DNA of 63,992 nucleotides, the filler included, from Basidioascus undulatus (taxonomy: Eukaryota): the NCBI GenBank assembly GCA_000826855.1. It is 6 parts of 6 records of this genome, joined end to end, with 100 filler letters (N's around TTAATTAATTAA, not from the genome) between each part and the next. Parts side by side here need not be neighbours in the genome. Positions count along the whole stretch, not along the records: positions 21,720 to 32,506 come from JTLS01001087.1; 5 more parts are not named here. The stretch is one strand, 5' to 3'. Made by a program: the position numbers and the translations under genes. Positions 31,740-32,506 of the stretch are shown here, one piece after another; position 1 is the first letter of the stretch, and each line of letters begins with the position of its first letter. The notes below the pieces were generated by a model. That model made no database searches. It saw only the letters and a list, made by a program, of their open reading frames with translations, and was not told the origin of the DNA.

Positions 31740-32393
31740 ATGGCCTTCAAAGTTCGAACCCAAATCATCGACAGTTCAGTGGTGCCAGGCGAAAGTGGTG
31801 TGCCAGCGCATACCCTTTTCGAACTCAAGGGCCACCACGCCGTCTGGTCGTTCTACGCAGGGAGCGTGGATCCGAACTCCCCAACCCGTGGCCTGCGCGC
31901 GGAGGGAGACGATCAGAAGGTATCGAGCAAGAAGCGATACGCGCTCATTCGGTTCATGCTCCTCTTCTCTATCACACCGCTGCTTCAGGAGCTCTTGGGC
32001 GATACTGCCGGGGCACCGTGGGGAGAAGCCGTCCAAAACGGCAATTACTCTTTCCGGCAGTACCTTGAATTCTCTCGATCCATCGCCGAGCGTGCCCTGT
32101 TGCAGTATCTTGCGGACTTGTTCTGCGCCGAGTTGAACATCAGCAATAACGGCAGAGAGGTGACTGTCACTGCGGCCAACCTAAACAGCGTGGGCTACGT
32201 GCTAGACCACTTCAGCCGCTATCGGTTCCCTGCAGGGTCGAAGGCTGACCTGTTCGGCGTCTGGCGCCGGTTTTGCCGTCTGGCTAGCAACGGAGTGAAG
32301 AACACCGACGCCGAAGATCTGGACGAGTTGCAGCGGCTCAGCAGGAAAATGACGCGACTGCGACACTCGATGGGCAAGTCAGGCCGATCATGA
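31740..32393 (+). CDS. Nuclear-style ORF with a degenerate LAGLIDADG homing-endonuclease-like C-terminal domain; probable 69-nt spliceosomal intron 31920-31988
   Basis: Start context acaATGgcc after a CT-rich leader. The C-terminal segment LEFSRSIAERALLQYLADLF..VTVTAANLNSVGYVLDHFSRYRFPAGSKADLFGVWRRF..DLDELQRLSRKM follows the LAGLIDADG-domain pattern (..IIxHFxxYPLxxxKxxxFxxW..LxxIxxLxxxM). It is directly followed by cox1 sequence. Confidence 0.55.
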   Translation: MAFKVRTQIIDSSVVPGESGVPAHTLFELKGHHAVWSFYAGSVDPNSPTRGLRAEGDDQKVSSKKRYALIRFMLLFSITPLLQELLGDTAGAPWGEAVQNGNYSFRQYLEFSRSIAERALLQYLADLFCAELNISNNGREVTVTAANLNSVGYVLDHFSRYRFPAGSKADLFGVWRRFCRLASNGVKNTDAEDLDELQRLSRKMTRLRHSMGKSGRS

Positions 32394-32506
32394 CCTACAG
32401 GTATCAAGATTTTCTCATGGCTGGCCACACTTTACGGTGCTACGCTACGGTTCACTACACCGATCATCTTTGCGCTTGGATTCCTGGCACTGTTCACAAT
32501 TGGTGG
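32394..32506 (+). pseudogene. cox1: Mitochondrial cox1 exon fragment (NUMT), cut by the contig end
   Basis: Translates [38 protein letters not shown], the COX1 region around the K-channel lysine K319. Confidence 0.93.

Follow-up and report, generated by a model that had tools for sequence, protein, structure and literature searches.

Does the open reading frame at 31740–32393 of the window represent a mitochondrial intron endonuclease that was domesticated in the nucleus, or does it have a simpler origin? The window is the whole stretch of Basidioascus undulatus DNA analysed here (63,992 nucleotides, filler included), and the region in question is formed by the last 767 bases of contig C99 (assembly of 32 Mb, 2,992 contigs). 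C99 is ended by an artificial linker, N, TTAATTAATTAA and N (32507–32606, strandless), beyond which an unrelated contig lies. As the earlier note on this DNA had described, the frame is uninterrupted on the plus strand from the ATG at 31740, in the start context acaATGg, to the TGA at 32391–32393; it encodes 217 aa. According to the analyses below, this frame is a chimera: codons 1–96 belong to a nuclear host gene, and the last 121 codons are mitochondrial. The locus is very likely a NUMT that splits a nuclear gene, most likely an inert young pseudogene whose frame is not yet closed.

Upstream of the frame, an MFS-like gene is located on the plus strand at 29645–31467. It contains in-frame stops and frameshifts and matches MFS_1 weakly (E 0.019), in agreement with its description as a pseudogene. 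In run X3, one contig (depth 8.9) passes over the introns of this gene at 31080–31132 and approximately 31216–31296, with both joints at GT..AG. These two joints are a sign that run X3 is RNA, though it was labelled DNA by guess, and the MFS-like gene is a spliced, apparently transcribed pseudogene.

The 5' part of the chimeric frame (31740–32027, plus strand, 96 codons) supplies the ATG and the frame, and is assigned by paralogue alignment to a nuclear gene of the zf-MYND-type family. Three further contigs of the genome, C1921, C2630 and C12, match the ORF, in each case inside residues 1–94 and with protein identities of 47–56%; its ATG is common to these paralogues. The similarity breaks at the Glu codon 32025–32027. 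The identical bases before and after this codon are 24/36 and 11/36 for C12, 22/36 and 10/36 for C1921, and 15/36 and 10/36 for C2630. A zf-MYND finger is detected by Pfam at the C-terminus of the C12 paralogue (E 3.2e-7). The C2630 piece gave no Pfam match, zf-MYND included, and the finger was found by Pfam neither in the 217-aa ORF nor in a 213-aa piece of C2932, the contig described below. Stops or frameshifts are present in all three paralogues, and the 5' part here is the sole unbroken frame of the four copies. Compared with C1921, it has two deletions (21 and 3 nt) that both keep the frame; these could mean selection, or could predate the insertion. Outside this genome, none of the 858 candidates for the C12 paralogue in a word-indexed search proved to be an intact host-family homologue, and therefore close relatives seem absent from the searched libraries. 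C12, C2630, C1921 and C1422 (L002–L004, L049) constitute a small zf-MYND-type family in which every aligned copy carries stops or frameshifts. The C2630 paralogue is also represented by an 856-nt contig in run X3.

In the earlier note, 31920–31988 (plus strand) was taken as a candidate spliceosomal intron. The letters GT..GCTCAT..CAG are present, and the 69-nt segment preserves the frame. However, the segment is kept as codons (KKRYAL or KRFAL) in all three paralogues, and none of them has GT at the donor place. The run X3 contig from the C2630 paralogue retains the matching segment, and its flanks are unspliced. Thus, 31920–31988 is most likely host coding sequence. The peptide ELLGDTAGAPW, which was read as a degenerate LAGLIDADG helix, is aligned with LLGDT or VLGDT in two of the three nuclear paralogues. 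Residues 1–97 match the endonuclease family profile with an hhalign probability of only 0.2%, so ELLGDT was rejected as a LAGLIDADG motif in favour of host-gene sequence, and the ORF does not form a two-domain endonuclease chain. The supposedly newly gained N-terminal exon is the front half of a split host gene, the back half of which is probably located on C2932.

The next segment, 32028–32392 (plus strand), corresponds to the 3' end (approximately 365 nt) of a mitochondrial cox1 site-941 group I intron with the tail of its endonuclease. This assignment is based on phmmer, hhalign, a structural model and a shared G|ACC junction, and the left edge at 32028 is uncertain by a few bases. Two matches were obtained by phmmer among 1.84 billion proteins at E up to 0.001. 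In the better match (E 3.2e-5), residues 100–187 of the query are aligned to residues 188–274 of P0001, a double LAGLIDADG protein that itself reads on into PTGIKIFSW of cox1. The second match, P0002 (E 5e-4), is a bacterial peptidoglycan-binding repeat protein and was taken as chance. The C-terminal part matches the profile of eight family members with an hhalign probability of 96% and an E-value of 4.9e-9, and its identity to the cox1-941-intron relatives over the second domain is 21–26%. These results indicate that the C-terminal half is LAGLIDADG-derived, as proposed in the earlier note.

The fold of the C-terminal part, which that note suggested as a check, is consistent with this assignment. 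The alignment-guided model (pLDDT 70) matches LAGLIDADG enzymes with a Foldseek probability of 1.00, and is fitted to residues 195–315 of I-LtrI with a Z-score of 10.9 and an rmsd of 3.0 for 106 aligned residues; since four LAGLIDADG relatives were included in the alignment, this fold result leans on the hhalign match. Using a single-sequence model (pLDDT 63), no LAGLIDADG entry appeared among the 50 structure matches listed. Pfam gave no LAGLIDADG match at E up to 10 for the ORF and its C-terminal 134 aa. In the ESM Atlas feature search, the top scores of 0.80–0.82, some of them to LAGLIDADG clusters, are below the 0.9 mark and were treated as a lead only. A profile search against solved structures (alignment A2) places the family near I-OnuI, with a signal that is driven by the relatives and was left uncounted for the ORF. 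The family match begins past the second motif helix, and the mitochondrial part is devoid of the motif helices bearing the catalytic acidic residues. What 32028–32392 encodes is domain 2 of a double-motif LAGLIDADG protein, minus the motif helix.

Close relatives of this tail were searched in several libraries. None of the 12 near-length candidates for residues 95–200 from the word-indexed search was a relative, and none of 371 metagenome pattern matches was confirmed with the C-terminal part; the near-length protein search and the metagenome-contig search reach close relatives only. In the genome itself, 31995–32400 matched itself alone, and the endonuclease part is absent from six contigs with mitochondrial or adjacent sequence of the fragmented mitochondrial assembly. 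The site-941 endonuclease family (P0001, P0003–P0005, L061 1576–2490 and L065) has worn motifs even in mitochondria. The first motif is of the type TGFCDRS, and the second is of the type SGYFTLYC, lacking the usual acidic residue. Judging from these motifs, the family may be a maturase-like or inactive lineage.

The earlier note pointed out that cox1 codons follow the TGA in frame with zero spacing. The codons are indeed in frame on the plus strand, and match COX1 (PF00115) with an E-value of 2.9e-8 and 33.4 bits, compared with the cut-off of 34.8, for a piece of 37 aa. The zero spacing, on the other hand, is not special. The terminal G of the intron is at 32392 and the exon begins at 32393, so that the TGA at 32391–32393 (plus strand) is composed of the last two intron bases and the first exon base. 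A pattern scan of metagenomes detected seven loci with an intron at the matched cox1 site. The junction G|ACC is the same as in two of them (L061 and L065), in which the 5' exons end in GT; as the terminal G was demanded by the search pattern, the independent evidence from these loci is the upstream intron and the ORF only. In both loci, a double LAGLIDADG ORF of the family, in frame with the exon, stops only a few bases short of the splice site, and two of the eight family proteins read straight into PTGIKIFSW. Thus, the in-frame abutment is inherited from the intron. The intron of L065 is 1,406 nt long, from GT| to G|ACC. In L061, a group I core (Rfam, 62.2 bits) lies upstream of the ORF and occupies the upstream part that is missing at the present locus. 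Here, no Rfam group I match was obtained between 30500 and 33500 at E up to 10, and the 5' splice site was likewise not found. At the remaining five loci (L062–L064, L066 and L067), a compact ORF-less intron of approximately 245–260 nt is present at site 941, without an Rfam group I report at E up to 0.01. At L061 1125–1232, a group II intron terminates so close to the start of the 941 intron that the exon between the two is very short, just a few codons.

The intron is inserted at GT|A in the codon that precedes PTGIKIFSW, and 232 nt separate this site from the nearest upstream intron of the organism's own cox1. The number 941 follows if that upstream intron is at the usual site 709. The class P941 is described as a rare class of basidiomycete cox1 introns (PMC7843977). 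The own mitochondrial cox1 on C2990, the comparison with which the earlier note called for, contains other introns and none at site 941. As this cox1 is uninterrupted there and no second copy was found in the genome, the locus does not duplicate an intron of the present mitochondrial DNA.

The cox1 exon piece downstream of site 941 (32393–32506, plus strand), identified by Pfam and by comparison with the own cox1, differs from the latter at 9 of 114 bases (105/113 identical in the search alignment). Four of the differences, all within the first 16 nt, are silent; two are shared with a cox1 NUMT on C779, and three are private amino-acid changes. The four silent changes resemble what would be left by a co-conversion tract, in the sense in which the term is used in PMC8393795. 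From the three groups of changes together, the donor was an intron-bearing allele. The decay since insertion is approximately 2–3% according to the three private amino-acid changes in 37 cox1 codons, which are small numbers.

Further cox1 or endonuclease NUMTs are present in the assembly, at least three in number (C779, C2977 and C2562). The cox1 NUMTs at C779 22257–22558 (L007) and C2977 8195–8524 (L008) are 82% and 90% identical, respectively, and that on C779 starts within a few bases of site 941, after a short ATG-led frame. At C2562 approximately 7990–8300 (L059:2059–2349), a fragment of the first endonuclease domain shows 48% identity to P0006 and is possibly derived from the same lost intron.

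The probable far side of the insert came from searching the genome with the 3' part of cox1. C2932 opens with collinear mitochondrial sequence that lies 230 nt beyond the C99 end along cox1 (281/298 identical). It is probably mitochondrial to approximately 960, and then the 3' half of the host gene follows. The host gene resumes at the same Glu codon where the C99 copy stops: after the breakpoint codon, 17/21, 15/21 and 12/21 bases are identical to the paralogues, compared with 9–12/36 before it. Soon after the junction, the 3' half on C2932 is frameshifted relative to C12 and C2630 (anchor distance of 169 nt, versus 156 and 177 nt), and C1921 is itself shifted (161 nt). The private divergence is alike on both sides, 3/114 on C99 and 4/171 at the start of C2932. 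No read or contig bridging the 230-nt gap between C99 and C2932 was seen. The two sides probably belong to a single insertion of approximately 1.67 kb, composed of 479 nt at the C99 end, approximately 230 unassembled nt that would link the contigs, and approximately 964 nt at the C2932 start. C2932 335–960 has no match elsewhere in the assembly and no family was found for it; its joining to mitochondrial intron sequence is what suggests a mitochondrial origin. An open frame of 213 codons (C2932 219–857, L038) starts in mitochondrial cox1 intron sequence. In the mitochondrial contig of today, an AT-rich repeat sits inside the counterpart of this frame (C2990 26–107), and the frame may be an older, intact form of an intron ORF of unknown family. 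It was rejected as another LAGLIDADG sequence (0.1% against the profile; no Pfam family).

The join itself is real and nuclear, and is not a mere contig chimera. A single Logan contig covers 30700–32506 in two of the three runs, at depths of 19.3 and 43.7; both runs are possibly the source of this assembly, and the result is a check by re-assembly, not an independent sample. The junction-bridging contigs come from a different assembly of the reads, and one of them is 42 kb long. In contrast, the mitochondrial cox1 contigs of two runs have depths of 495–568 and 3562–3660, and differ by 2–6 letters. Thus, the nuclear context claimed in the earlier note is correct, and the depth across 32393/32394 is nuclear. 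The Logan contigs stop 44 nt past the assembly end of C99, as would be the case if the NUMT can no longer be told apart from mitochondrial DNA at that point and is absorbed into the mitochondrial graph. In run X3, just a 33-nt paralogue piece was obtained over 31740–32393, and this contig blank was counted neither for nor against. If the join were an assembly artefact, a nuclear contig end would have been connected to mitochondrial reads, or the endonuclease part would come from a second mitochondrial type in the sample. The cox1 piece does sit at a contig end, mitochondrial repeat sequence occurs on other contig ends (C385 and C1074), and the assembly may itself be built from the two bridging runs. 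However, the different read assembly spans 30700–32506 with a single contig of nuclear depth in both runs, no deep contig over 32028–32392 was found among the run contigs at 88% likeness, the cox1 piece carries the nine differences described above, and the host gene picks up again on C2932. An artefact is very improbable, and is largely refuted already. The C385 end, the C1074 start and C2992 are nuclear-looking contigs that begin with, end with or are mixed with AT-rich mitochondrial repeats, and are possible mis-joins.

Of the features of a NUMT, mitochondrial homology, a physical join to nuclear sequence at nuclear depth and decay after insertion were found, and for nuclear sequence on the far side C2932 fits by collinearity and by the shared breakpoint codon. 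With the site-941 junction, the nuclear-depth join bears out the proposal that an intron-encoded LAGLIDADG ORF and its 3' cox1 exon moved to the nucleus, and the locus is best regarded as a leftover from the LAGLIDADG and group I intron families rather than as one of their members. The donor would have been an older or another cox1 allele that still bore the group I intron at site 941. A mitochondrial fragment of approximately 1.7 kb would have been inserted into the zf-MYND-type gene at the Glu codon of its E-D-H-I motif, probably by capture during double-strand-break repair. Capture of mitochondrial DNA at double-strand breaks is established for yeast (work cited in PMC4008547). The left break would lie inside the intron endonuclease gene, on the same strand and in the same frame as the host gene. 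The host ATG would then read 96 host codons and 121 codons of the endonuclease tail, to the TGA across the intron/exon boundary. The locus would preserve, as a fossil, an intron that the mitochondrial cox1 here no longer has.

The open frame could instead mark a new chimeric gene, in which the host promoter drives transcription of the fusion and selection maintains it as a 217-aa nuclear or cytosolic protein, and the beta-sheet of the LAGLIDADG half-domain would bind DNA or RNA without cutting. We consider this unlikely. The frame is open across both parts, and the start context is strong. The prior for sense orientation together with in-frame fusion, 1 in 6, also speaks against the inert-NUMT reading. 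The 5' part is intact here and has a stop or frameshift in each of the three paralogues, the half-domain can be modelled as a LAGLIDADG alpha/beta fold (pLDDT 70), and a piece from the C-terminus of the maturase I-AniI reportedly promotes splicing (cited in PMC2647301). However, openness is expected without selection. In a neutral decay simulation, 120 codons stay open with a probability of 0.12–0.78 (2–7% substitution, 0–0.5% indels); the probability is 0.21–0.78 at 2–3% substitution with the same indels, and 0.21–0.68 at 3%. The same insertion provides an internal control, the 213-codon open frame on C2932. In addition, the motif helix that packs the domains is missing, and no relatives of the fused or the C-terminal part were found (0/371 in metagenomes, 0/12 among proteins, close relatives only). 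The endonuclease tail has a GC3 of 0.73, and the mitochondrial DNA of this genome has 52% GC, a value that, with the short introns, would point to a basidiomycete yeast. In the decayed C2562 NUMT, which comes from domain 1 of this endonuclease family, the GC3 is 0.76 and a stop is present. Thus, the high GC3 is native and not a nuclear adaptation; codon amelioration in the nucleus was rejected as its cause on this control and on the decay of only 2–3% next door. A gene at birth, in which the half-domain replaced the C-terminal part and MYND finger of the host protein, and a dead nucleic-acid-binding fusion is expressed and selected while the sister copies decay, is distinctly unlikely. The ORF product, if made, would be without both the host MYND finger and the LAGLIDADG active site. 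No fungal NUMT–LAGLIDADG fusion was found in our literature search, for which subscription journals were mostly out of reach. The version of the earlier note, a near-whole LAGLIDADG gene with a degenerate motif that gained a 5' exon and an intron and serves as a trans-acting mitochondrial maturase, is extremely improbable. The 69-nt GT..GCTCAT..CAG segment keeps the frame, and LAGLIDADG-derived nuclear splicing factors exist (OTP51, PMC8393795). Against these points, both the motif and the intron were traced to host-gene codons, and the N-terminus, with three acidic and three basic residues in 35, does not appear presequence-like. To act as a maturase, the product would have to be imported and to meet a substrate, and as today's mitochondrial cox1 in the assembly has no site-941 intron, no cognate substrate is available. 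Retention as a nuclease-dead binder or maturase is also disfavoured by the lack of domain 1 and of the second motif helix. No orthologues of the fusion were found in the protein and metagenome searches, which reach close relatives only, and such relatives seem to be absent from the libraries.

On the present reading, the NUMT in the zf-MYND-type gene is an example of a NUMT breaking a gene. It also serves as a fossil record of a site-941 intron, with an endonuclease of unusually high GC3, that was formerly present in the cox1 of this lineage and has disappeared from the mitochondrial gene; the C2562 fragment is a second record of this family. NUMT chimeras of this kind can pass as domesticated endonuclease genes in annotation. 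Should the fusion prove to be transcribed, translated and kept by selection, the locus would offer a datable and testable case of a nuclear gene newly built from organellar selfish DNA.

Domesticated LAGLIDADG proteins include the bacterial WhiA. OTP51, HO and WhiA have whole LAGLIDADG domains, cross-species conservation and demonstrated function. OTP51 is a plant protein with two motifs (PMC8393795), and HO is a yeast protein (PMC7282813). The present locus is similar to these in that LAGLIDADG-derived sequence lies in a chromosomal ORF and is fused to other sequence. Unlike them, it has a half-domain only. The cox1-941 introns with I-OnuI- or I-LtrI-type ORFs (P0001, P0003–P0005, L061 and L065) share the same site and an ORF that reaches the 3' splice site in the frame of the exon. 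Compared with these introns, the present locus retains only the last 365 nt and lacks the ribozyme core, domain 1 and the helix of the second motif. The GC3 of 0.73 also differs from the 30–40% GC of the metagenome cox1-941 loci. Fungal NUMTs with intron DNA are already known, and an in-frame NUMT that splits a gene is less often described. In Anisogramma anomala, 20 NUMT loci are reported (bioRxiv 10.64898/2026.10.20.760510). As here, they are fragments of mitochondrial genes and introns in nuclear contigs, diverged and with sequence-supported junctions, and a near-intact frame occurs occasionally (one nad4 copy). According to the same text, none is predicted to disrupt a coding gene, whereas here a gene is split and an in-frame chimera results. 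In further contrast to the Anisogramma loci, the insert preserves an intron that is absent from the current mitochondrial cox1.
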